Of a DNA stretch of 45,763 nt, positions 14,846 through 44,545 are shown one piece after another (position 1 is the first letter of the stretch; each line of letters opens with the position of its first letter). The stretch is taken from IMG/VR virus record IMGVR_UViG_3300045988_132303; one strand, 5' to 3'. A program made the position numbers and the translations under genes. A model generated the notes under the pieces. The model did no database searches, was not told the DNA's origin, and was given only the letters and a program-made list of their open reading frames with translations. Source of the stretch: a virus.

Positions 14846-16450
14846 ATGGCAGACGGACACGACAACCTGATACCTTTTCCTGAATCCGGAAGGAGTAAGG
14901 AAGAAGTAAGGGAAATCAACGCACGCGGCGGCAGGAATTCCGCCAAGGCACGCCGGGAGAAAAAAGCAATATCGCAGCTCGCCTCTGCCATGATTTACTC
15001 ACAGCTCGACGGCAAGGGCAAGGATGCGATCAAGAAGCAGTTTGGCGGGCTTGTGAGCGACGATGTGACCGTTGCCTCGGCTATGATAGCGGGGCAGATA
15101 CAGGCGGCAATGAAGGGCGACAGCAGGGCTTTCAGCACGGTCGCGGCGCTTATCGAAAAGCAGGAAGAAAAAGAAGCCAAGGCAGAGGAAAAGCGGCAGT
15201 CGCTCATCAATCGCGTATACCATATGGACTTGTACGAAGTGCCGGACGCTTTTCACAGTACGCTCCGGGCAGTGCGGGATCAGAAATATCTTGAGTATGT
15301 CTTTTCCGGCGGCAGAGGCTCAACAAAGTCGTCCACCATCGCGCAGATTGTGGTCGAAATCATGAAAAACTATCGGGATATACACTGTGTAGTGTGCCGA
15401 AAGGTCGGAAACACTTTAAAGGATTCCGTGTATAGTAAGATAAAATGGGCGATTGAAAAGCAGGGACTGACGGCAGAGTTTACGGTACACAAAAGCCCGC
15501 TTGAGATAACACTGAAAGCAACCGGGCAGAAGATATACTTCCGTGGTGCCGATGAGCCGGAAAAGATAAAGTCTATCTCTCCGGAGTTCGGATATCTCGG
15601 CATCCTGTGGTTTGAGGAGCTTGACCAGTTCTGCGGGCAGGAGGAGATACGAAACATCACGCAGTCGGTAATCCGAGGCGGTGAGCACGCGTGGATTTTC
15701 AAGAGCTTCAACCCGCCGAAGTCAAAGGTAAACTGGGCGAATCAATACATACTTGAGCCGAAGGACAACCGGATCGTGCATAAGTCCACATATCAGGACG
15801 TTCCGGTTGAGTGGCTCGGACAGCCATTTATCGATGAGGCGGAGCACCTGAAGGAGATAAACCCGTCAGCTTATGAGCATGAGTATCTCGGCATTCCCAA
15901 CGGGAGCGGAGGAAATGTTTTCGATCTTGTTGAGGTGCGCGAGATTACCGACGAGGAGATATCCCGCATGGACAGGATATATCAGGGCGTGGACTTCGGT
16001 TGGTATCCTGATCAGTTTGCTTTTCTCCGGACGCACTACGATGCCGCGCGTGAGAAGATATATCTCATGGACGAGCTGTATGTGAACAAGCAGAGCAATG
16101 CCGAGACCGGAAAATGGATCATCGACAAAGGTTACAGCGATTTTGCCATCACGTGCGACAGCGCAGAGCCGAAGTCGGTCAACGATTACCGGGACATGGG
16201 GCTTAAAGCGCGAGGAGCGATAAAGGGCGCGGGTTCGGTGGAGTACGGCTTCAAGTGGCTGCAATGCCGGACGATTGTTATCGACCCGAAGCGCACACCG
16301 AACGCATACAACGAGATCACAAAGTATGAGTATGAGCGGGACAAAGAAGGAAATGTTATCAGCGGATATCCGGACGGCAACGACCATGCGATTTCCGCGC
16401 TCAGATACGCATACGAAAGTCTATTCAACAAGCGGGGGATAAACGCATAA
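14846..16450 (+). CDS. terL: Terminase large subunit (PBSX/Terminase_3-like) with an N-terminal extension of about 130 aa
   Basis: Walker A GGRGSTKS. WFEELDQF (Walker B-like). C-terminal nuclease region. N-terminal GGRNSAKARREKK segment. Confidence 0.9.
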   Translation: MADGHDNLIPFPESGRSKEEVREINARGGRNSAKARREKKAISQLASAMIYSQLDGKGKDAIKKQFGGLVSDDVTVASAMIAGQIQAAMKGDSRAFSTVAALIEKQEEKEAKAEEKRQSLINRVYHMDLYEVPDAFHSTLRAVRDQKYLEYVFSGGRGSTKSSTIAQIVVEIMKNYRDIHCVVCRKVGNTLKDSVYSKIKWAIEKQGLTAEFTVHKSPLEITLKATGQKIYFRGADEPEKIKSISPEFGYLGILWFEELDQFCGQEEIRNITQSVIRGGEHAWIFKSFNPPKSKVNWANQYILEPKDNRIVHKSTYQDVPVEWLGQPFIDEAEHLKEINPSAYEHEYLGIPNGSGGNVFDLVEVREITDEEISRMDRIYQGVDFGWYPDQFAFLRTHYDAAREKIYLMDELYVNKQSNAETGKWIIDKGYSDFAITCDSAEPKSVNDYRDMGLKARGAIKGAGSVEYGFKWLQCRTIVIDPKRTPNAYNEITKYEYERDKEGNVISGYPDGNDHAISALRYAYESLFNKRGINA

Positions 16451-16451
16451 T

Positions 16452-17867
16452 ATGGGACTTATTTCATGGATAAAAGGATGGTTTAACAGAATGCTTTTAA
16501 TCGACAGCCGAATCAAAGACGAGTTTGACGTGGAGCCTATATCATCCACTGCGATGGACAAGTACATCAAGCGGTGCATGGATATATACAGCGGTATGCC
16601 TGACTGGGTAGACCCCGACGGGCATATCAAGACCGTAAACGTTGCGAAAAGCGTATGCTCCGAGGTCGCGCGGCTTACTACTCTTGCTATCGGTATAAAG
16701 ATAGACGGGAGCGCACGCGCAAAGTGGCTTCAGGAGCAGATAGACGCAGCATATTCAAGCTTCAGGGACTGGACGGAGTACGGATGCGCGGCGGGGAATA
16801 TGATCCTCAAGCCCAACGGCGAGGGGATAGATTTCGTCATGCCGGACAGATACAAGATTGTTGACATGGCAAACGGAGCTATTACCGGGATTGTGTTCAT
16901 CGACCGGCAGAAGTATGAGAAAAAGTGGTACACCCGGCTTGAGTATCACCGCTTCACCGGCACGGGGGACAACCGCAGGTATGAGATATCCAACCGGTGC
17001 TTCAGGGGAGAGAGCGAAAACGACAACGGACGCGCCGTACCGATAGCCGAGACCCCGTGGAGCGGCTTGCAGGAGGATATAGTCGCCGTCAATGTCGATA
17101 AGCCCCTGTTCGGAGTTTTCCGCACACCGAGCGCGAACAACGTTGATATCGGCTCCCCGCTGGGCTTGCCGGTCTTTGCGGAGGCGACCGAAGAACTCCG
17201 GGACTTTGATATAGCATACAGCCGCAACGCGAAGGAAATCCTCGACAGCAAGCGGCTTGTGCTCCTCGACAGCGACCGCCTTCTCAGCACACCCGGCGCA
17301 CGTCTCAGCCAGAAGAACGCCGATGCGCTTTCCCGTGACATGGGGCTTCCGGACTATATCAAGACTGTCGAAGGCGACGGCAACAGCGAGATATATCACG
17401 AGATCAACCCGTCCCTCAATACCGAGATGCGCAAGAGCGGCATGGACTTCCTTCTTTCGCAGATCGGGTACAAGTGTGGATTCTCCAACGGGTACTTCGT
17501 TTTCGACGAAAAATCCGGCATGGTCACGGCGACGCAGGTCGAATCGGATGACCGCCGCACGATACAGCTCATCAAGGATATGAGGGATAAGCTTCAGGCT
17601 TGCCTTGACGGTGTGATATACGCGCTCGACAAGTTCGCCGATGCATACAACCTCGCCCCGGCGGGGACATACAAGGCGACGTATGACTTCGGGGACATCA
17701 CATACAACCGGGAGGAGGATCGCGCGAGATGGTACAGCTATGCACAGTCGAACAAGGTTCCTTTCTGGTATTATCTTGTGAAGTTTGAGGGACTGAGCGA
17801 GGAAGAGGCAAAGGCTCTCATAGAGGAGGCAACCCCGGCAGACCCGATGTTCGGAGGCGAGGAGTAA
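16452..17867 (+). CDS. Portal protein (SPP1 Gp6-like)
   Basis: 471 aa, immediately after TerL. Size and position are typical of a portal. Confidence 0.8.
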   Translation: MGLISWIKGWFNRMLLIDSRIKDEFDVEPISSTAMDKYIKRCMDIYSGMPDWVDPDGHIKTVNVAKSVCSEVARLTTLAIGIKIDGSARAKWLQEQIDAAYSSFRDWTEYGCAAGNMILKPNGEGIDFVMPDRYKIVDMANGAITGIVFIDRQKYEKKWYTRLEYHRFTGTGDNRRYEISNRCFRGESENDNGRAVPIAETPWSGLQEDIVAVNVDKPLFGVFRTPSANNVDIGSPLGLPVFAEATEELRDFDIAYSRNAKEILDSKRLVLLDSDRLLSTPGARLSQKNADALSRDMGLPDYIKTVEGDGNSEIYHEINPSLNTEMRKSGMDFLLSQIGYKCGFSNGYFVFDEKSGMVTATQVESDDRRTIQLIKDMRDKLQACLDGVIYALDKFADAYNLAPAGTYKATYDFGDITYNREEDRARWYSYAQSNKVPFWYYLVKFEGLSEEEAKALIEEATPADPMFGGEE

Positions 17868-19781
17868 ATGCTGTCTCCTGAGTACCTTCTGCGTGTCTCT
17901 GAGGGCGCGGAGGAAATAGCGGAGCGGTTACACCAAGATATCGTTAAAAGGCTTATACGGCGCATTGTGGCGCGTCTGGAACGGGGAGACGATTACATAC
18001 TCACCCCGATTGACAAATATCAGCTTGAAACGCTGAAGCAGGCGGGCTTCCTCATGAAGGATATCGAAAAGGAGATAGCGGCAAAGACCAAGCTCCAGAG
18101 GGCAGAAATCCGCGCCGCCTTTGAGGATGCCGGCATACGCTCTTACGCTTACGACAGCCGGGTATACGAGGCGGCAGGGCTTGCAACAAAGCCGCTCACA
18201 CAGTCGCCGCAGTACATCCGCATGATGCAGAGGGCATACGAAGCGACGCTCGGAGAGTGGCGTAACTTTTCCCGCACGACAGCGGGGGAGGCATACCGCC
18301 GTTTTATCGTTGAGTGCGACCGTGCATATTACAGCGTGCAGTCAGGCGCGATATCGTATACGCAGGCATTCCGTGAGGCGATAAACCGCATAGCCGACGA
18401 GGGTGTTGTGGTGGCATACCGGGACAAGGACGGCAACATCACCCGGCGGGACACTATTGAAACCGCTACACTTCGCAACATTCGAACCGGAATCTCTCAG
18501 TCATGCGCGGAGATCACCAATGCCCGCATGGAAGAAATGGACTGGGATATACTTCTTGTGTCTGCCCATCTCGGCGCGAGGTACACCGAAAAGAACGATT
18601 ACACAAATCACTTCTGGTGGCAGGGTAAATTTTACTCCAAAAGCGGCAAGGACGAGCGTTTCCCGCCTTTCAGCGTATGCGGACAGGGGGAGGTACAGGG
18701 AATCAACGGCGCGAACTGCCGGCATTCATACAGCCCCGGAGATGGCGAGACAAATCCCTTCTCGGATTACGACAGCGAGGAGAACAAAAAGGCATACGAT
18801 CTTTCGCAAAAGCAGAGACAGCTTGAAAACCGCATCCGGCACACCAAGCGTCAGGTCATGGCGATAAAGGAAGGTCGCGATTATGCCGAACACCCCGACC
18901 ACAAGGCGGCTCTCGACGAGGATTACAAGAAGAAAGCCGCGAAGCTGGAGCGGCAGAACAAGGAATACAAGGACTTCTGCGAACAGAACGGCTTGAAAAC
19001 ACGTCAGGAACGGCTGACAATAGCCAAGTGGGACAGGCAGCAGGCGGCAGAGGCGCGGGGAGCTGCGGCAAGGTACAAGAACAGCCGGAGCACAGAGCCG
19101 AGAGAGAAGCCGGACACGAGCACGGTTGAGGTGACCGTCGGGACAGATATCTATAACGTCGAAAAGCCGATGTCGGAGTACAGGGACGCATCGGGGCGGT
19201 TCGATATAGATAAAGCGAATGCAGATTACGAAAAGCTCTTGACAAAAGTTCCGGAAGAGTATAAAATGAGCATAGAGACAGCTTATAAAACGACGGAATT
19301 TGAAGAGAACACGGAAATCAGCTCCGCTTTCCGGTATGATACCAAGAGCGACAGGGTAGTGTATAATCCTCGGTATGATAATTTCGATGATTACAGCTAT
19401 CCTCAAGCGGTCACACATGAGCTTTCTCACCGCATTGACGCTCTGGATTATCATTCAGAGAAAAACGCGAAATTCAGCAAGGCGATTGATGATGCATATC
19501 AAGTTGTCATGAAAAATGCCGGGAGACTGCGCGAATACAGTTTTAACGAAGATGGTGACGGTTTTGTGTCTGATATTATATCAGCTCTTTCAAACGGAGA
19601 AATTCGAACATCCGCAAGTCACTCCGTGAATTACTGGATGAAACGAGGAACAAAAGAGAAAGAGATTTTTGCTAATCTGTTTTCAATGGGTGTCTTTGAC
19701 CAAAAGAAACATATTGACCTTATTAACGAGCTATTCCCGGAAGTATATGAAGCATACGACGAGATCAGAAAGGATGTGTAA
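17868..19781 (+). CDS. Head morphogenesis protein (SPP1 gp7/MuF family) with a C-terminal HExxH domain
   Basis: MuF-like core follows the portal gene. HELSH at 19416-19430 (about residue 517 of 637) lies in an AT-richer 3' part. Confidence 0.75.
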   Translation: MLSPEYLLRVSEGAEEIAERLHQDIVKRLIRRIVARLERGDDYILTPIDKYQLETLKQAGFLMKDIEKEIAAKTKLQRAEIRAAFEDAGIRSYAYDSRVYEAAGLATKPLTQSPQYIRMMQRAYEATLGEWRNFSRTTAGEAYRRFIVECDRAYYSVQSGAISYTQAFREAINRIADEGVVVAYRDKDGNITRRDTIETATLRNIRTGISQSCAEITNARMEEMDWDILLVSAHLGARYTEKNDYTNHFWWQGKFYSKSGKDERFPPFSVCGQGEVQGINGANCRHSYSPGDGETNPFSDYDSEENKKAYDLSQKQRQLENRIRHTKRQVMAIKEGRDYAEHPDHKAALDEDYKKKAAKLERQNKEYKDFCEQNGLKTRQERLTIAKWDRQQAAEARGAAARYKNSRSTEPREKPDTSTVEVTVGTDIYNVEKPMSEYRDASGRFDIDKANADYEKLLTKVPEEYKMSIETAYKTTEFEENTEISSAFRYDTKSDRVVYNPRYDNFDDYSYPQAVTHELSHRIDALDYHSEKNAKFSKAIDDAYQVVMKNAGRLREYSFNEDGDGFVSDIISALSNGEIRTSASHSVNYWMKRGTKEKEIFANLFSMGVFDQKKHIDLINELFPEVYEAYDEIRKDV

Positions 19782-40071: not shown

Positions 40072-41115
40072 TTATAAATATCGCTTAAAAGTATCGCTAT
40101 AATACGTTTCGAGCCGCTCAAAAAACTGGTCTTTTTTGTCCCTCATAATGTGACCATATACGCGATTAACCATCTCCTCCGTCTCGTGTCCGAGCATATC
40201 CGCGATGTACTTTACCGGAATTCCAAGCATGATCATGACCGATGCAGCATAATGACGCAGTTCGTGGAAGGTGTAGTGTGCTCCGGGGCAAACTCTTGCG
40301 AGGGCGCGTTGATATCGAGTGTAAATTTGATTGGCTTTGAGCGGCGTTACAAAGACAGCGTCCGATGTATAGAGACGGCTCATCTCGTCCCGCAGATAAG
40401 GAATCATCTTAATAATCCGATATCCTGCGTGAGATTTCGGAGCCTTTTCGACAAAATTGTTATGGATGTCCCGCACGAGCGCGGTATCGACTTTTATTGT
40501 TCCCGCTCCCAAATCAACATTTGCCCATTTAAGCCCAGCGATCTCACTTGAACGCATCCCGGCAAGAGCGGCAAGCAGCACAGGCAGCTCGATATCTGTG
40601 TCGTATACATCTTTAATCAGCCGCATAACATCTTCTTCGGTTGGTATGATTATGTCCGATTTTTCTTTCTGCGGCAATGTTGTAAGTAATGTAAAATCCG
40701 GGCGAAACATCTTGAGCGCGGAAGACAAAAGCCCGTGCATATTTCTGACTGTCTTCGGCGCATGGCTTTCCGCTTCTGCGTTAACTGCCGCTTGCACATC
40801 CTCACGGGTCAGATCGTTGACATTGATTTGGTGGAGCATCTTGAGCGAGTTTTTCCGCATCTGAGTATACTCTCGATAGGTGCGCGGCGAAAGGACGTTT
40901 TTTTTGGATTCCACGTATCGTTCCATTGCGCAACAAACCGTGATGTTCCCTGCGCGGTTGTCTTTTCTCTGCGCTTCAAATTGCGCCGCCTCAAGCTGCA
41001 CGGCTTTTTTGTTTTTTCCGGTAAAGCTCCGGTAATGCGCCTTTCCGTCCTCGTCCTTATAGTCAAGGACTTTTATCCGGTACGACCCCGACGGTAGCCT
41101 TTCTGCCTTAACCAT
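40072..41115 (-). CDS. int: Tyrosine site-specific integrase
   Basis: C-terminal catalytic pattern: R(SSEI)...HELRHY...LGH...Y. GGAGG RBS 6 nt before ATG 41115. Confidence 0.9.
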   Translation of the reverse strand: MVKAERLPSGSYRIKVLDYKDEDGKAHYRSFTGKNKKAVQLEAAQFEAQRKDNRAGNITVCCAMERYVESKKNVLSPRTYREYTQMRKNSLKMLHQINVNDLTREDVQAAVNAEAESHAPKTVRNMHGLLSSALKMFRPDFTLLTTLPQKEKSDIIIPTEEDVMRLIKDVYDTDIELPVLLAALAGMRSSEIAGLKWANVDLGAGTIKVDTALVRDIHNNFVEKAPKSHAGYRIIKMIPYLRDEMSRLYTSDAVFVTPLKANQIYTRYQRALARVCPGAHYTFHELRHYAASVMIMLGIPVKYIADMLGHETEEMVNRVYGHIMRDKKDQFFERLETYYSDTFKRYL

Positions 41116-41136
41116 TTTGACCTCCTTCAAAAAGAA

Positions 41137-41152
41137 CCCCGCACGCGCGGGG
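41137..41152 (-). terminator. Hairpin plus U-tail between the HTH-TM gene and int
   Basis: ccccgc/gcgggg stem. The minus strand continues ttcttttt. Confidence 0.5.
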
Positions 41153-41158
41153 TGTTGT

Positions 41159-41626
41159 TCATATTATCGTTATAAGGATTTCTTTCTGCATCTCGACAGA
41201 AGCAAGTGCCTGCCTGAAAAACCCGATGTCGATGTGTGTGAAATCGTATATCAGTATGCCGATGATCGCGGCAACCAACGCAAACAAAAGAAAGCCGAGA
41301 AAGATTATCCAAAGGTTTTTATCTCTTAAAGAGCGGAGATAGATCTCGGATATCCGTTTCTCCGCTCCATAGTCTCGGACATACTTAATGACAGTCGCGG
41401 TTCCGGTTGTAGGCTCAATCTGCTTTTGCTCGATTCCCGCAAGCTCGTCGAGAGAGCCACCAAGAACTTTTACCACACTGGAGACGGTGTAAAACGCCGC
41501 TCCCTCGGCATGACCGGAGAACAGACGCGCAACCGTGCCTGGAGCGATGCCGCTCAGCTCTGCAATCTGCTGATTGGTCAGGGCTTTTTCCTTTTTCAGC
41601 TCGTTCAGATACTCTGAAATCGTCAT
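41159..41626 (-). CDS. Membrane-anchored XRE-type HTH protein
   Basis: LTNQQIAELSGIAPGTVARLFSG HTH. C-terminal transmembrane segment LWIIFLGFLLFALVAAIIGILIY. Start at ATG 41626. Confidence 0.65.
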   Translation of the reverse strand: MTISEYLNELKKEKALTNQQIAELSGIAPGTVARLFSGHAEGAAFYTVSSVVKVLGGSLDELAGIEQKQIEPTTGTATVIKYVRDYGAEKRISEIYLRSLRDKNLWIIFLGFLLFALVAAIIGILIYDFTHIDIGFFRQALASVEMQKEILITII

Positions 41627-41682
41627 TTTTTTTGACCTTCCTTCATTGTATAGTTTCCAGCATTTAAATATGAATCGCAATT

Positions 41683-41694
41683 CTCATATATGAG
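41683..41694. promoter_or_regulatory. Perfect 12-bp palindrome ctcatatatgag in a divergent intergenic region (operator candidate)
   Basis: Self-complementary. Flanked by an imperfect aatcgcaatt / aattcgatt inverted repeat. Confidence 0.4.
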
Positions 41695-41736
41695 TTGCAC
41701 AATTCGATTAAATATGCGGGTATTCAGAACTGGTTA

Positions 41737-41765
41737 TTGCTATTCACCTGTAAATGTGGTATGGT
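41737..41765 (+). promoter_or_regulatory. Promoter candidate TTGCTA-17 nt-TATGGT with TGn
   Basis: Read directly from the sequence. Confidence 0.4.
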
Positions 41766-41795
41766 AAATATAGCATAAAAAACCGGAGGTATACT

Positions 41796-41963
41796 ATGAT
41801 ACGCAATCGCTATGAGAAACGGCGCATCGAAAGAGAACGCCATTACACCGACCCGATAATCACCGAGGACGAGCTTCGGCTTGCAAGAGCCTTGCAGCTC
41901 CGCATGAGGCGCGTGACGTATCAGGAGGACTGTGCGCCGGAAGACGGAAAGGGGGGTGATTGA
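41796..41963 (+). CDS. Small basic hypothetical protein (55 aa)
   Basis: GGAGG RBS. Arg/Lys-rich. Confidence 0.45.
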   Translation: MIRNRYEKRRIERERHYTDPIITEDELRLARALQLRMRRVTYQEDCAPEDGKGGD

Positions 41964-42107
41964 ATGGGAGAGATTCGTTTGACGCCGGATGTTGCCCGGT
42001 TTATCGCAAAACTCACGCAGGAAGAATTCACAATTATAAAATCTCTCTACGGAGAGGACGACGAAAGGACACAGACAAATGAAAGACGAAATAATAAATC
42101 TCGATGA
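41964..42107 (+). CDS. 47-aa hypothetical protein (not in the ORF track)
   Basis: ATG immediately after the upstream stop. MGEIRLTPDVARFIAKLTQEEFTIIKSLYGEDDERTQTNERRNNKSR. Confidence 0.35.
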   Translation: MGEIRLTPDVARFIAKLTQEEFTIIKSLYGEDDERTQTNERRNNKSR

Positions 42108-42198
42108 ACTCAGCGAAGAAAGTAGAATTCTCGTCGAAATCATACTTAATGCCACCCCCGAAGAGTTTGAAGAACTTAAACGCCTTGCAGGCAAATAA
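42079..42198 (+). CDS. 39-aa acidic hypothetical protein (not in the ORF track)
   Basis: MKDEIINLDELSEESRILVEIILNATPEEFEELKRLAGK. Followed by a terminator. Confidence 0.3.
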   Translation: MKDEIINLDELSEESRILVEIILNATPEEFEELKRLAGK

Positions 42199-42216
42199 GC
42201 AATAACATATACAACT

Positions 42217-42240
42217 GCCCGCTTCGGCGGGCTTTTGTTT
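42217..42240. terminator. Hairpin terminator between converging genes
   Basis: gcccgc-ttcg-gcgggc followed by ttttgttt. Confidence 0.7.
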
Positions 42241-43277
42241 TATAATTTTATATTTTTTTCTTGCAGATATTCGGTTATTCTTTGATATTTCTTAGAATTG
42301 CTGTTTTTTATGCGTCGAAATGCACCGAATGTTTTTGGTATCAGTTCTTCCGGAAGAACTTCAAGAAGAACATAATAAATTCTTCTGTCGATTTCTTCTT
42401 GCTTTTCTTTTTCGAGCAAATCCAGATAATCTTGATATCCTCGTTTCTGCTCTTCTGTCCTATCATCAACATATGGACGGTGACTTGCAATGAAAGGGTT
42501 GGCTTTTTTTCCTTTTATGTAAAAGTAATCGGGAGAAAAAGCAGTTATAGAGCATCGACAACCGGGATGAAAATTTCCATGTACTCTTGCATAGTTTGGT
42601 AGCTTTGGATATTTTGATAAGCCATTTTTGACCGTGTATACTCTGCCGATCATTTTGGCACATTCGCCGCAGCATGGATGCCCTAAGTCGCTATACATAA
42701 CCAAGCCGTTTGTATATGAAATTGCATTGGGAATTACATATTTAATTATTCCTTTTGCGCATTGATCAAAAGTGTTCTCTGTATATCGAGGTTGCGATTC
42801 AAGATATTCTACGGCTTTTCTCCCCTCATCAAACATTTTCAGCTTAAAATGCCAATCAATCAAACGGTTAAAATCGTTATGCGACCATCCGCAATGTTCA
42901 TTTGCAAGCATAAGCTCGGTAGATTTCCAAAGAAGCGCAGAGCACAATTCTTTTTCGCTTTCGATACCTTTCTCACCGTCATCAAAATGCCCGCCAGCCA
43001 TCATCCGCAGAACATAGTCCAACGAGCCAAGAGAGCCGTCGCCAGACATGGTATCAACACGACCAAAATTCGGAACAGGTATTGCGCGAATATCATTTGC
43101 GCAGTTCATATCATAAATTCTGTCGCCTATTACTATATAATCTGAATATCTTGCGTCCGAAAAAACATCCCTGTTGTTCGGGCGCATTTTTGATAAATAC
43201 CCATTTTCAAAGAAAGCAATGAATTTACCTTGATAAACAGGGGATGAAAGTTTTCGATTAACTGCCCATGATATCAT
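42240..43277 (-). CDS. 345-aa protein with a MuF/gp7-like CxxC...HPxCRC domain, co-transcribed with the repressor
   Basis: GHPCCGECAKMIGRVYTV...PKLP...HGNFHPGCRCSITAF (residues about 200-247). AT-rich. Overlaps the upstream XRE gene by 20 nt. Confidence 0.6.
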   Translation of the reverse strand: MISWAVNRKLSSPVYQGKFIAFFENGYLSKMRPNNRDVFSDARYSDYIVIGDRIYDMNCANDIRAIPVPNFGRVDTMSGDGSLGSLDYVLRMMAGGHFDDGEKGIESEKELCSALLWKSTELMLANEHCGWSHNDFNRLIDWHFKLKMFDEGRKAVEYLESQPRYTENTFDQCAKGIIKYVIPNAISYTNGLVMYSDLGHPCCGECAKMIGRVYTVKNGLSKYPKLPNYARVHGNFHPGCRCSITAFSPDYFYIKGKKANPFIASHRPYVDDRTEEQKRGYQDYLDLLEKEKQEEIDRRIYYVLLEVLPEELIPKTFGAFRRIKNSNSKKYQRITEYLQEKNIKL

Positions 43278-43605
43278 TTTGTTTTTTTCCTTTGAACAAC
43301 TGTATTAATGATCTTTGCTCATCTTGAGGTAGAGCAATTACATACTTAAGAAAATCGACAATAGCCGGATCGAGCTTCGACAGATCGAGCGTGTCGGAAC
43401 TGAGGGAAGCTTCATCTGTTTCTATACTAAAATACTCAACCGAAATACCAAAATAGTCTGATATTTTTTTAATCGATGTAGCGCGTGGCTGTGCTCCCTG
43501 CTTCCAGTGCGTAGCGGTTGCATTGGAAAAACGCAGCTCCTCGCAGACTTTGCTCGGATATTTGTCTTTTTCAGCACACAGTTCAACGAATTTTTCCCAA
43601 AACAT
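43258..43605 (-). CDS. cI-like XRE-family repressor
   Basis: N-terminal HTH (KYPSKVCEELRFSNATATHWKQG). Divergent from the cro-like early operon. Confidence 0.7.
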   Translation of the reverse strand: MFWEKFVELCAEKDKYPSKVCEELRFSNATATHWKQGAQPRATSIKKISDYFGISVEYFSIETDEASLSSDTLDLSKLDPAIVDFLKYVIALPQDEQRSLIQLFKGKKQNDIMGS

Positions 43606-43662
43606 AATTTTGCACCATTTAAAATTTAATTAGTAAAATCAAATTGTGAAAGGCGCCGAAAA

Positions 43663-43707
43663 AGTAGAAAACGTAGATTTTTCTATTGACAAAGTAGAAA
43701 AAGTAGA
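43663..43707. promoter_or_regulatory. Two 15-bp direct repeats GTAGAAAANGTAGAT (operator candidates)
   Basis: 43663-43677 and 43693-43707, 30 bp apart. The second fills the spacer of the + strand promoter. Confidence 0.55.
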
Positions 43708-43714
43708 TTATAAT
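43686..43714 (+). promoter_or_regulatory. Consensus early rightward promoter
   Basis: TTGACA-17 nt-TATAAT. Confidence 0.7.
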
Positions 43715-43820
43715 AGAACCATCAAAGCACCGAACACACCGGTGCTACGACACAAACGGAGACGCGCCTCCGCTTGTTATAGACATCGCGCCTTACCATA
43801 TACGATTGTTCCGCAACTCA

Positions 43821-43849
43821 ATTGTAACACGGCAGGGCGCAAATGTCAA
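43821..43849 (-). promoter_or_regulatory. Leftward promoter toward the repressor gene
   Basis: Minus strand reads TTGACA-17 nt-TACAAT. Confidence 0.65.
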
Positions 43850-43889
43850 GGGAAATTCTGAAAAACTAACCGCAAAGAAAGAAAAGGCA

Positions 43890-43929
43890 GGCAAAACAAA
43901 AAACCAATGGATGCGCGTATCCATTGGTT
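43890..43929 (-). terminator. Strong minus-strand intrinsic terminator
   Basis: 11-bp stem aaccaatggat/atccattggtt (43902-43929). The minus strand continues ttttgttttg. Confidence 0.7.
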
Positions 43930-44014
43930 GAAATTGCGACCCGTCAATAAGGGAGCAGGCAAATTCAAAAGCTTGGCTAACATAACCGCGCTCCTTTCTT
44001 TGCCAAGACGGCAC
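43893..44014 (-). ncRNA. Candidate antisense transcript/attenuator unit of about 120 nt
   Basis: Bounded by the promoter at 44021-44049 and the terminator at 43890-43929. Contains AAAGGAG-7 nt-ATG (43983) opening a 45-codon ORF that runs through the terminator. Confidence 0.4.
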
Positions 44015-44020
44015 GCCGTC

Positions 44021-44049
44021 AGTATACCGCTGATCGGCGTGTTTGTCAA
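44021..44049 (-). promoter_or_regulatory. Second leftward promoter
   Basis: Minus strand reads TTGACA-17 nt-TATACT. Its upstream 16 nt nearly duplicates that of the promoter 200 bp away. Confidence 0.65.
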
Positions 44050-44090
44050 GAAAAATTCTTAAAAATTAATATATTAAAAAGGAGGACAAA

Positions 44091-44300
44091 ATGAACCTTG
44101 ACCTTAAGACCCGGATAGTTCGGCTTCATATAAAGCAGAACGACATCGCAAAGATGTTGAGCGGCAACGGCTTTCCGGTACATCCCGCAGAGCTGAGCGA
44201 CGCGATTCACGCAAAGAACAGCTACCCGAAAACCCTTAAGATTCAGAACGATCTTAAGAATCTTCTGACCAAGCTCGAACACGAAAGGGGACTTGACTGA
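44091..44300 (+). CDS. Cro-like small HTH protein
   Basis: First gene of the rightward operon. IKQNDIAKMLSGNG HTH-like segment. AGGAGG RBS. Confidence 0.55.
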   Translation: MNLDLKTRIVRLHIKQNDIAKMLSGNGFPVHPAELSDAIHAKNSYPKTLKIQNDLKNLLTKLEHERGLD

Positions 44301-44545
44301 TGCCCCGCGCAGCCATGACCGAAACCGAAAAACGGTGCGCTTCGGTCGTGCGGCATATCGACGCATACAAAGCAGAAAGATACCGGAAGGGAGACGATAA
44401 AGACACCGTCGCAAAGAAACTCGGTCTGTCCTACGGTCGCCTGAAAAGCATTCTCAGGACATCCCCGGAAAGCGTCACCCTCTCGGAGCTTTCTGCCATC
44501 GCAAACGCGATGAACATCTCAATCTCAACTCTCATAGGAGGCTGA
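44300..44545 (+). CDS. Small HTH-like protein
   Basis: LSELSAIANAMNISISTLIGG. Confidence 0.45.
   Translation: MPRAAMTETEKRCASVVRHIDAYKAERYRKGDDKDTVAKKLGLSYGRLKSILRTSPESVTLSELSAIANAMNISISTLIGG

Follow-up and report, generated by a model that had tools for sequence, protein, structure and literature searches.

The gene at 42240..43277 on the minus strand of the window (the whole stretch of viral DNA analysed, 45,763 nt, from a temperate phage of gut Clostridia) encodes a 345-aa protein in which a conserved N-terminal domain is fused to a C-terminal half that shows homology, on profile comparison, to the same half of minor head proteins of the MuF2 type. The gene overlaps that of a likely immunity repressor in the lysogeny module and lies within an exchangeable AT-rich cassette. 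Under the favoured reading, which is given a probability of roughly 0.4, the gene would be an accessory cargo ('moron') of the immunity cassette, made in the lysogen and serving superinfection exclusion or defence. No earlier description of a half-MuF module recruited to a lysogeny module was found in the literature searched. The features of the region are listed below.

42217..42232, no strand: GC-rich hairpin (GCCCGC-TTCG-GCGGGC), a bidirectional terminator-like site.
42239..43835, no strand: exchangeable AT-rich immunity/cargo cassette, delimited by blastn breakpoints against the sister phages L055 and L054.
42240..43277, minus strand: 345-aa gene of a large unnamed family (ORF list, homologues, AlphaFold2 model, PHROG 4611 and hhalign).
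42537..42683, minus strand: Cys/His knuckle core of the MuF-like module, residues 199-247 (motif coordinates).
43258..43605, minus strand: gene for a 115-aa XRE/Cro-CI-type HTH protein (ORF list and Pfam/PHROG matches).
43606..43835, no strand: part of the switch region that is specific to the cassette (promoters and repeats; right edge from blastn).

The 345-aa reading frame and that of the XRE gene overlap by 20 nt, as had been described in the initial annotation and as the ORF coordinates bear out. The overlap was regarded as real because no alternative start is present downstream ahead of the conserved block, and through it the 345-aa gene is shown to be translationally coupled to the XRE gene. 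The hairpin starts 8 nt past the stop codon of the 345-aa gene and closes the operon; in a scan of positions 41000-44500, no terminator-like site was found between 42233 and 43756, hence none inside the operon. A leftward promoter-like site (43650-43623) lies upstream of the XRE gene, and the switch region of the cassette further contains a rightward sigma-70-like promoter (43686-43714, perfect match) and two 22-nt direct repeats (43658-43679 and 43688-43709), which are candidate operators. Opposed to the XRE gene are Cro-like and XRE genes read rightward at 44091-44545. Its 115-aa product was classified as XRE on the basis of sub-threshold Pfam HTH matches (HTH_3, 17.8 bits where the cutoff is 23) and a match to PHROG 8 'transcriptional regulator' (1.2e-8), and no peptidase or autocleavage domain was detected in it by Pfam, PHROG and NCBIfam profile searches; it is likely the immunity repressor. 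The layout of the sequence is consistent with co-transcription of the 345-aa gene with the repressor and with its expression in the lysogen. No tRNA genes were found in the window, and no INPHARED phage matched the region by megablast.

The main rival to the cargo reading is that the 345-aa protein is an accessory regulator of lysis and lysogeny, a sensor, co-repressor or anti-repressor that acts alongside the repressor to establish or lift immunity in the manner of ImmA with ImmR. Translational coupling to an XRE protein that lacks an autocleavage domain speaks for such a role, as does the gene order (HTH regulator, family gene, integrase), which is that of immR-immA-int. The rival is nevertheless considered unlikely: neither HExxH nor any other protease signature is present in the protein, no Pfam or NCBIfam match was obtained for it, and the genomic contexts described below also weigh against it.

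The AT-richness of the operon was confirmed, its GC content being 0.389 as compared with 0.503 for the rest of the window and the third lowest among 888 sliding windows of 1366 bp. The GC3 value was 0.32, against 0.60 for the MuF gene of the phage. Across the family, the gene was AT-richer than its own flanks in 48 of 48 loci, with a mean difference of -7.8 GC points. Acquisition as a cassette, which had been suggested from the composition, was borne out by comparison with L055, a sister phage whose integrase is 99% identical: blastn homology ends at 42238 and resumes at 43836, placing the boundaries at 42238/42239 and 43835/43836. The exchanged segment of 1.6 kb comprises the 345-aa gene, the XRE gene and the putative operators, and the hairpin, which belongs to the sequence common to the sister phages, marks its left edge.

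Between these shared flanks, the sister phages (integrases 99-100% identical) carry different genes, namely another XRE gene followed by genes for small membrane or secreted proteins: a 141-aa SHOCT+TM2 protein in L055, a 154-aa SHOCT+Zn-ribbon+TM protein in L054, a 250-aa multi-TM protein in L057, multi-TM proteins of 188 and 191 aa in L060, and a 228-aa secreted protein in L059. The membrane and secreted cargo of this slot resembles Sie proteins, in agreement with the exclusion-type position assigned to the operon in the initial annotation. Since the 345-aa gene sits where related phages keep membrane cargo resembling exclusion genes, it is probably a phage-versus-phage conflict gene; this argument from position is one of guilt by association. 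Joint replacement of the repressor and the 345-aa gene as one cassette would suit a regulator as well, but L057 and L060 have their XRE in common and differ in the cargo that follows it, and the membrane proteins found in the slot are a further point against a regulatory role.

Conservation of the XRE and MuF-like genes as a pair, which had been proposed for examination in other prophages, was not observed: the upstream gene differs among loci, and what stays is the slot, past the repressor region and at the last position before an integrase of the tyrosine or serine type. The recombinase that follows this slot is a tyrosine integrase at about 12 distinct loci and a large serine recombinase at L012, L014 and L020; in all, the lysogeny-module position is shown by about 15 loci besides that of the window. 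A role as an integrase cofactor was rejected, because the downstream recombinase may be of either type. The upstream genes encode a plain XRE protein, an HTH-TM protein, a LexA/S24-type repressor (L012, L013 and L020), an ImmA-like HExxH peptidase (L022), a lipoprotein or a bPH-SHOCT protein, the S24-type and ImmA-like assignments being motif readings by eye. As the family gene co-occurs with both self-cleaving repressors, which an ImmA-type anti-repressor would not be expected to accompany, and an ImmA-like protein, it is no substitute for either, and the idea of an ImmA analogue is weakened; in addition, the 237-aa variants of the family do not adjoin a repressor. On the other side, fusions to the FtsK-gamma winged-helix DNA-binding domain occur among the members, and one of them (P0083) occupies the repressor position, divergent from Bro-N and small early genes, as might be expected of a regulator.

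The differing upstream partners bear also on the possibility that the operon is a type II toxin-antitoxin or abortive-infection pair, with the XRE protein as antitoxin and the 345-aa protein as toxin. Overlapping genes with the small HTH gene first are the usual layout of such pairs, and the locus is AT-rich and mobile. The idea was rejected, however, because the XRE pairing is not conserved. Moreover, the XRE gene and the Cro-like genes make up a classic divergent switch, and no toxin-like fold or catalytic motif was recognised, a Foldseek search of the full AlphaFold2 model against the PDB having returned nothing below E=1 and TPR-like fragments only. No defence model of PADLOC-DB v2 matched the 345-aa protein at E<=1. 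A toxin-antitoxin function is thus held to be highly improbable.

Neighbours of family genes at other loci include a Mrr-type nuclease, RhuM, Fic and, from a sequence read by eye, a Uma2-type nuclease, kinds that are typical of defence islands. One distant member is fused to two AAA+ modules and lies in a conjugative-element-like locus rather than a phage, beside FtsK/SpoIIIE, an FtsK-gamma protein, Fic, a MobA/MobL relaxase and a serine recombinase. This locus, together with the FtsK-gamma fusions and the lack of a recognisable enzymatic motif in the family, would fit a factor for lysogenic conversion or element maintenance that takes no part in phage exclusion and acts instead on host physiology or on the DNA translocation or entry of conjugative elements, the MuF-like module being a zinc-stabilised scaffold for binding DNA or protein. 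MuF domains are also hubs of the polyvalent proteins of conjugative elements (PMC5512222). Prophage lysogeny modules, however, make up the great majority of the sampled contexts, the slot of the sister phages holds Sie-like cargo, and no host-physiology domain was detected, so that a maintenance role of this kind appears rather improbable.

The MuF-type motif recognised in the initial annotation reflects true homology, as judged from PHROG 4611, from PF06152 matches in relatives and from hhalign. It consists of GHPCCGECAKMIGRVYTV (residues 199-216), PKLP (residues 224-227) and HGNFHPGCRCSITAF (residues 233-247), giving the knuckle core pattern CCGEC...GRVY...PKLP...HPGCRC; the DNA coordinates first assigned to it (42552-42674) were otherwise right and slightly short at both ends (42537-42683). 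PHROG 4611 'minor head protein' matched residues 201-334 of the 345-aa protein with E=3.3e-13. The protein itself had no Pfam match at E<=1, and Pfam PF06152 (Phage_min_cap2) was matched by 14 of 33 relatives (best 1.4e-8), among which P0169 (48.3 bits) and P0076 (37.6 bits) exceeded the gathering score of 26.3. By hhalign, the family profile was aligned over 144 columns with the portal-adjacent minor head protein of Staphylococcus phage TPWB-09 (probability 99.1%, E=7.6e-19), which itself matches both PF06152 and PF04233.

The region of the 345-aa protein aligned to this genuine minor head protein (residues ~187-340) is wider than the motif first noted, and the homology is confined to one half of the domain. 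The alignment with the TPWB-09 protein took in only family columns 180-335, every PF06152 match in the relatives was limited to profile positions ~208-339, and the N-terminal ~200 positions of PF06152 were unmatched in the 345-aa protein, which therefore does not contain a full MuF domain. The nearest genuine MuF proteins, from Staphylococcus and Terrisporobacter phages, are only ~30% identical to the MuF module. The module is composed of the Cys/His knuckle, an S-x-R-P-x-x-D-D-R-T motif, a long helix and a basic P-K-S...R-M-K tail. From the ligand pattern of its conserved residues (C203, C206, H237 and C240), the knuckle is predicted to bind zinc. Among ~190 family representatives, the C-x-x-C cysteines, the H and the C were each kept in at least 80%, while the final position of CRC held Cys in 68 and His in 39 of 191, and the HPxCRC motif as such was kept in only about one third of members.

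The genuine MuF gene of the phage was confirmed at 17868..19781 (PF06152, E=1e-65), where it comes after the large terminase gene and an ORF in the portal position (16452-17867) for which no Pfam match was obtained at E<=0.001. The 345-aa gene is ~22 kb from this gene, on the opposite strand and in the lysogeny module. In three complete genomes, an HMM of the C-terminal module missed the resident phage's own MuF protein even at E<=10.

The MuF-like part had been described as a stand-alone domain in a protein of no obvious family, and neither description held. It is the C-terminal half only, joined to a separate conserved domain (residues ~15-190) of beta-hairpins and TPR-like helices, and the protein belongs to a large unnamed family, with 53 homologues in the word-index search, 290 clusters (50% identity) at E<=1e-30 over the full length and 1470 representatives at E<=1e-3. 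The hosts of the family are phages of Lachnospiraceae and Oscillospiraceae, and public records label its genes 'minor capsid protein' or hypothetical. The AlphaFold2 model of the 345-aa protein was confident and compact (pLDDT 91.5, pTM 0.86). Nothing in Pfam, PHROGs, NCBIfam or the PDB sequences matched the N-terminal half, and Foldseek gave weak TPR-like hits only (E>1); a PDB sequence-profile search gave nothing relevant, and Foldseek against BFVD returned only family members mislabelled 'minor capsid protein' and weak genuine MuF proteins. An ADP-ribosyltransferase fold, considered at first for the MuF domain, was discarded, as the papers treat MuF as a head-targeting structural domain that is fused to ARTs and is no ART in its own right.

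Both domains were present in 178 of 199 members; the N-terminal domain was combined with another C-terminus in 16, and the same C-terminal module with another N-terminus in 5. Membrane-tethered variants (TM, TM2) were also found. The MuF-like core is not essential to the family, since the 237-aa variant is devoid of the Cys/His core altogether and another variant has the whole C-terminal module replaced. An alternative C-terminal variant (P0046 type) was modelled with pLDDT 81 and pTM 0.50; a likeness to another virion protein was looked for in the PDB, and the model had no significant match there. A word-index homologue search with the P0046-type C-terminus alone found nothing, and neither did a search of the alternative C-termini against PHROGs.

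That the gene is a head-gene duplicate or fragment in decay, having no function of its own, might be supposed from its possession of only half a MuF domain and from its distance from the packaging module. This supposition is effectively refuted by the conservation data: the full-length clusters are numerous, near-invariant residues abound in both halves, the model is compact and the genomic slot is conserved. The reading frame is also intact in most of the 20 near-identical members of its cluster (>=90% identity), most of which have the full 345 aa and which come from many samples, many on contigs of ~42 kb.

Under the favoured reading of exclusion or defence cargo, the 345-aa protein would be produced in the lysogen from the same transcript as the repressor and would be directed at conflict with other phages or mobile elements. 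The MuF-derived module, with its predicted zinc knuckle and basic helical tail, may retain the binding activity of MuF proteins, and partner binding or regulation peculiar to the family would fall to the N-terminal beta/TPR-like domain. In SPP1, gp7 attaches to the portal oligomer and to DNA and helps infection to begin (PMC6316719); if the module keeps such binding, the resident protein could on that account act as a competitor of an incoming phage's MuF protein, either at the portal during procapsid assembly or at a DNA/entry step. A MuF protein of a distant subtype would let the resident phage itself escape, and the variants that have other C-termini would mimic different targets or act against them as effectors. 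Such a mechanism of MuF mimicry is plausible. The specific proposal for this gut-Clostridia prophage family, in which a captured MuF half fused to the N-terminal domain acts as a mimic that jams the portal/MuF or MuF-assisted DNA-entry step of superinfecting phages while the resident is spared by a different MuF subtype, is nevertheless put forward as a doubtful one. Mimicry of a contemporary competitor is only putative, given the ~30% identity to genuine MuF proteins, and nothing specific on a MuF-like exclusion protein or decoy was found in the literature searched.

Among phage head proteins, those of the MuF type belong to the commonest, and understanding of them is still poor. If true, mimicry of a structural protein for defence would be a new principle beside Tab and TerI among the prophage defences that target assembly or packaging, and would give a handle on what the C-terminal MuF module binds. 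For the annotation of Lachnospiraceae and Oscillospiraceae prophages, the analysis provides a family definition (interchangeable C-terminal modules joined to an N-terminal beta/TPR-like domain), a mapped exchangeable immunity/cargo cassette and a correction of the present gene labels. Experiments are feasible because family members are carried by Blautia producta DSM 2950, a cultured strain, and Blautia phage Montmirail, an isolated phage.

Among known systems, the ImmR-ImmA-Int modules of ICEBs1 and phi105-type elements consist of an HTH repressor gene, a second gene and an integrase gene with overlapping frames. The locus of the 345-aa gene is like them in gene order and overlapping reading frames. 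Unlike ImmA, the 345-aa protein has no HExxH metallopeptidase domain (Peptidase_M78/DUF955), as judged from Pfam, NCBIfam and the translation read by eye, and its family co-occurs with S24-type repressors and an ImmA-like protein.

Exclusion genes expressed in the lysogen are known from lambda (cI-rexA-rexB) and, between repressor and integrase, from lactococcal phages (Sie2009) and Streptococcus thermophilus phages (Ltp). The locus resembles these in having a cargo gene by the repressor, on the lysogeny strand and near the integrase, and in that the cargo is AT-rich and differs among related phages. The products themselves have no sequence or fold relation to the 345-aa protein, and the Sie and Ltp proteins are membrane proteins or lipoproteins, whereas the 345-aa protein is predicted to be soluble and cytoplasmic.

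The MuF superfamily comprises PF04233 Phage_Mu_F (MuF1) and PF06152 Phage_min_cap2 (MuF2), with SPP1 gp7 and Mu gpF as examples, and 85-87% of muf genes are located immediately downstream of a portal gene (Jamet et al. 2017, PMC5576092). The 345-aa protein shares with MuF2 the C-x-x-C, G-R-V-Y-S, F-P-x-L-P, H-P-x-C-R-C and D-D-R-T motifs and the A-P-K-S...Y-R-R-M-K tail, and its total length of 345 aa is that of a 'short MuF', but a beta-hairpin and TPR-like domain replaces the N-terminal ~200 positions of PF06152. Unlike MuF genes, moreover, its gene lies between repressor and integrase with neither portal nor terminase adjoining, and is apparently placed for transcription with the repressor, apart from the late genes.

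Tab (tail assembly blocker) is a prophage protein that blocks assembly of the invader (PMC10884400), TerI is a terminase inhibitor of prophage origin (bioRxiv 10.1101/2025.02.27.640495), and HepS senses tail-tip proteins (PMC13043305). These proteins differ from the 345-aa protein in not being derived from MuF, and Tab and TerI have dedicated self-immunity proteins, whereas no protein of this kind was identified for the 345-aa gene. The likeness to the three lies in the proposed mechanism, in which a prophage protein of the lysogen would engage a structural or packaging component of the invader, putatively so in the present case, and the resident would escape by means of a divergent component or an anti-factor.

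The two overlapping ORFs of the AT-rich repressor operon were confirmed, and the region is arranged as follows.

42217-42232: GC-rich hairpin after the stop codon of the 345-aa gene
42240-43277 (-): ORF of 345 aa, the subject of study
43258-43605 (-): ORF of 115 aa, overlapping the former by 20 nt
43658-43709: two 22-nt direct repeats, GAAAAAGTAGAAAACGTAGATT and GACAAAGTAGAAAAAGTAGATT, 30 nt apart, overlapping the rightward promoter
43686-43714: rightward promoter, perfect TTGACA-17-TATAAT
44091-44300 (rightward): small ORF in the Cro position, without a Pfam match
44300-44545 (rightward): XRE gene beyond the promoter region

In the alignment with homologues, the conserved N-terminal block begins about 20 residues past the first ATG of the 345-aa ORF, and the 20-nt overlap is genuine because a start further downstream would not serve. 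GC content was 0.389 in the operon versus 0.503 in the rest of the window (third-lowest among 888 sliding windows of equal size), and GC3 was 0.32 in the 345-aa gene versus 0.60 in the MuF (minor head protein) gene of the phage. The 115-aa product belongs to the XRE/Cro-CI HTH proteins (PHROG 8, 1.2e-8; sub-threshold Pfam HTH_3 and HTH_26; weak RstR-type match) and has no peptidase domain; its gene faces the divergent region, where the direct repeats are candidate operators.

Sister phages were found by an IMG/VR search with the integrase of the window, and their integrases were 99-100% identical to it. Homology by blastn (95-98%) extended from the integrase side to 42238 (sister phage L055) or 42116 (L054) and resumed at 43836 or 44020, respectively, and therefore the window-specific segment is 42239-43835, containing the 345-aa gene, the XRE gene and the putative operator/promoter region. 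The terminator hairpin (42217-42232) is outside this cassette, in the flank common to the sister phages. In the corresponding segment the sister phages carry a different XRE (36-43% identity where detectable) and then other cargo, which bears out the suggestion that the operon had been taken up as a cassette. The domain content of the cargo was read by sequence inspection, not by profile search.

Cargo after the XRE in sister phages
L055: SHOCT+TM2 protein, 141 aa
L054: protein with SHOCT, zinc ribbon and TM segment, 154 aa
L057: multi-TM protein, 250 aa
L060: two TM proteins, 188 and 191 aa
L059: secreted protein, 228 aa

L057 and L060 have the XRE in common and differ in cargo. After the repressor comes a site of variable cargo, and by our own reading its occupants appear to be mostly membrane proteins of the superinfection-exclusion kind. 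Just outside the cassette, in sequence common to L055, a 28-nt near-perfect palindrome (AACCAATGGATGCG/CGTATCCATTGGTT, 43902-43929) is followed by a T-run. On the other side, three small rightward ORFs (69, 47 and 39 aa; 41754-42198, +), none with a Pfam match, run towards the 345-aa gene and stop at the hairpin at 42217-42232, which is bidirectional; in L054 and L055, conservation is 100% for the 69-aa ORF and about 47-49% for the 39-aa ORF.

In the window and about 15 other distinct loci, the family gene was last or nearly last before the integrase, on the integrase strand and opposite to the early lytic genes, and its GC content was below that of the flanking sequence in 48 of 48 loci (mean, -7.8 GC points). 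Most loci have a tyrosine integrase, with large serine recombinases in L012, L014 and L020, and a role as a specific integrase cofactor is therefore unlikely. Upstream genes were identified by sequence inspection, apart from HTH assignments, which were scanned.

Genes upstream of the family gene
Window, L003, L010: plain XRE
L001: HTH with coiled coil and TM segment
L004, L006, L014: Cys-rich HTH with coiled coil
L012, L013, L020: LexA/S24-type repressor, by inspection
L022: ImmA-like HExxH protein, by inspection
L023: lipoprotein, by inspection
L008: bPH-SHOCT protein, by inspection
L011: Uma2-type nuclease, by inspection

The XRE plus MuF-like pair of the initial annotation thus did not hold up as a conserved two-gene module: the upstream gene varied across loci, and conservation is of the slot, not of the XRE pairing. 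A function of the 345-aa protein as regulatory partner of the repressor would agree with a gene order like that of ImmR-ImmA-Int, the translational coupling to the XRE gene, the joint exchange of both genes and the FtsK-gamma fusions in the family, one of them in a repressor-like position; however, the protein lacks any peptidase signature, family members are found alongside S24-type repressors and, in one locus, an ImmA-like gene, and cargo varies independently of the XRE. We consider such a function unlikely.

A second XRE-type HTH protein (173 aa; 41159-41680, -) is encoded directly upstream of the integrase, outside the swapped cassette. It has a C-terminal transmembrane helix (residues about 120-152) and is 97-99% conserved in sister phages L053-L055, and the protein preceding the family gene in L001 is similar to it.

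The 345-aa protein had been described as a stand-alone MuF-like domain, which it is not; its AlphaFold2 model (pLDDT 91.5, pTM 0.86) shows four parts.

Residues 20-56: two beta-hairpins
Residues 81-188: helical TPR-like block
Residues 192-265: Cys/His knuckle region
Residues 275-307: long helix, followed by two short helices

Foldseek with this model gave TPR fragments alone (E>1) and no relative in PDB. The motif block lies where it had been placed, and its true span (residues 199-247; 42537-42683) is a few codons wider. Among about 190 representatives, conservation of at least 80% was found for C203, C206, R212, P224, P227, H237 and C240, as well as for S265-x-R-P-x-x-D-x-R273, P314-K-S316 and many positions of the N domain (residues about 15-190). 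In about 56%, the final position of H-P-x-C-R-C holds Cys or His, and the strict string is kept in about one third.

The resemblance to MuF proved to be real homology, wider than the motif: PHROG 4611 'minor head protein' matched residues 201-334 (E=3.3e-13). Pfam gave nothing at E<=1 for the 345-aa protein of the window, and PF06152 matched 14 of 33 aligned relatives, always at profile positions of about 208-339. By tblastn against isolated phages, residues 191-342 were 31.9% identical to the minor head protein of Staphylococcus phage TPWB-09, whose gene comes directly after those for terminase and portal. That protein matches PF06152 as well as PF04233 Phage_Mu_F, two branches of one superfamily, MuF2 and MuF1, respectively (PMC5576092). 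The family profile aligned with the TPWB-09 protein by hhalign (probability 99.1%, E=7.6e-19, 144 columns) across C-x-x-C, H-P-N-C-R-C, D-D-R-T and the tail A-P-K-T-I-G-A-Y-R-R-M-K-R-S-N-S-K-R-Y-Q. The genuine MuF of the phage is encoded elsewhere, as had been stated.

14846-16450: large terminase, preceding the next two genes
16452-17867: portal-position ORF directly before the MuF gene, without a Pfam match
17868-19781: MuF gene, PF06152 Phage_min_cap2 at E=1e-65

This resident MuF was faintly similar to the family (hhalign E=0.0034, 59 columns) and was missed by the HMM of the C module (the MuF-like half, residues about 187-340) even at E<=10. PF06152 covers residues 2-372 of its 637 aa; the C-terminal extension of 265 aa (18984-19778, +) has no Pfam match, and MuF proteins with C-terminal extensions are candidate phage-delivered toxins according to Jamet et al. 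(PMC5576092).

The family is large and unnamed. A word-index search gave 53 homologues. When 1.84 billion representatives were searched with a profile, the matches numbered 1470 at E<=1e-3, 848 at E<=1e-10 and 290 at E<=1e-30, nearly all of the top 150 being full length. Decay of a head-gene fragment is contradicted by this family conservation and is extremely unlikely. Among 199 proteins compared, 178 had both halves, 16 combined the N domain with another C-terminus, and 5 had the C module behind another N-terminus; some members have extra N-terminal zinc ribbons, TM or TM2 segments, or FtsK-gamma winged helices. Hosts in genome records were Blautia, Lachnospiraceae and Oscillospiraceae.

Variants of 237-238 aa, with the N domain and a helical tail and without the Cys/His core, form a tight group on phage contigs of about 17-20 kb (L018, L025-L044; e.g. 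L025, 4177-4890) and are not beside an integrase. In L025, L032 and L043 the 237-aa variant is two small ORFs downstream of an Mrr-type nuclease (restriction endonuclease) gene, in L026 a Rha regulator is downstream of such a variant, and a RhuM gene adjoins one family member. In L006, L008, L014-L017, L023 and L024 (proteins P0044-P0052), the MuF-like half is swapped for an alpha/beta domain of about 180 aa, modelled at pLDDT of about 90, for which PDB, Pfam and PHROGs gave no match. The isolated Blautia phage Montmirail and the chromosome of Blautia producta DSM 2950 carry this variant. A word-index search with the alternative C-terminus of P0046 gave zero matches although P0046 and relatives are in the same collection, and a negative from such a sub-sequence query is not to be taken as absence. 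The distant member P0166 (1135 aa; L045/L046, 6001-9408) has a pair of SpoVK-like AAA+ modules as its C-terminal fusion partner. Its gene is situated between FtsK/SpoIIIE and FtsK-gamma genes in a locus resembling a conjugative element, near Fic, a MobA/MobL relaxase and a serine recombinase, with a very large SNF2/YodL protein (2398 aa) also in L046. BFVD entries A0A8S5N7M0 and A0A8S5LYD3 are family members labelled 'Minor capsid protein', presumably from a partial MuF match, and the label is probably wrong because of the lysogeny-module position of family members.

Operon and cassette structure, the conserved slot and homology to the MuF C-terminal half were established. The 345-aa protein is tentatively read as lysogen-expressed conflict or exclusion cargo, with a probability of about 0.4. 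A host- or element-directed conversion factor is decidedly unlikely, and a toxin-antitoxin pair very improbable. Precedents exist for prophage defences at assembly or packaging: tail assembly is blocked by Tab (PMC10884400), terminase by TerI (bioRxiv 10.1101/2025.02.27.640495), and HepS senses tail-tip proteins, the resident prophage bearing a non-triggering variant (PMC13043305). SPP1 gp7, the best-studied MuF, is a DNA-binding protein that binds portal oligomers strongly, is present in a few copies in the capsid and is needed for full infectivity, only about 25% of virions without it being infectious (PMC6316719). A lysogen protein keeping the MuF C-terminal module might compete with the MuF of an incoming phage, either at the portal, as the particle is assembled, or in the DNA/entry step. 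Variants tethered to the membrane or fused to FtsK-gamma would fit action near DNA entry or translocation, and self-sparing would be allowed by the resident MuF being a distant subtype. This specific mimicry is doubtful, since the nearest genuine MuFs share only about 30% identity, some variants of the family do without the Cys/His core, and the 345-aa protein matched no PADLOC defence model.

The anatomy of the gene and cassette is both new and solid, and the family is a large one that lends itself to experiments; the mechanism is an unproven proposal. In excerpts of Jamet et al. (PMC5576092), 13-15% of muf genes are away from portal/terminase genes, and no description of the present family was found there. 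The closest family is the MuF superfamily, of which the 345-aa protein has only the C-terminal half; because it has neither the full domain nor a position beside the portal gene, it is not filed as a MuF and is described as a MuF-derived module within an architecture that is new. As to function, it comes nearest to the cargo of immunity regions, examples being lambda rexAB and the Sie (superinfection exclusion) and Ltp genes of lactic-acid-bacteria phages.
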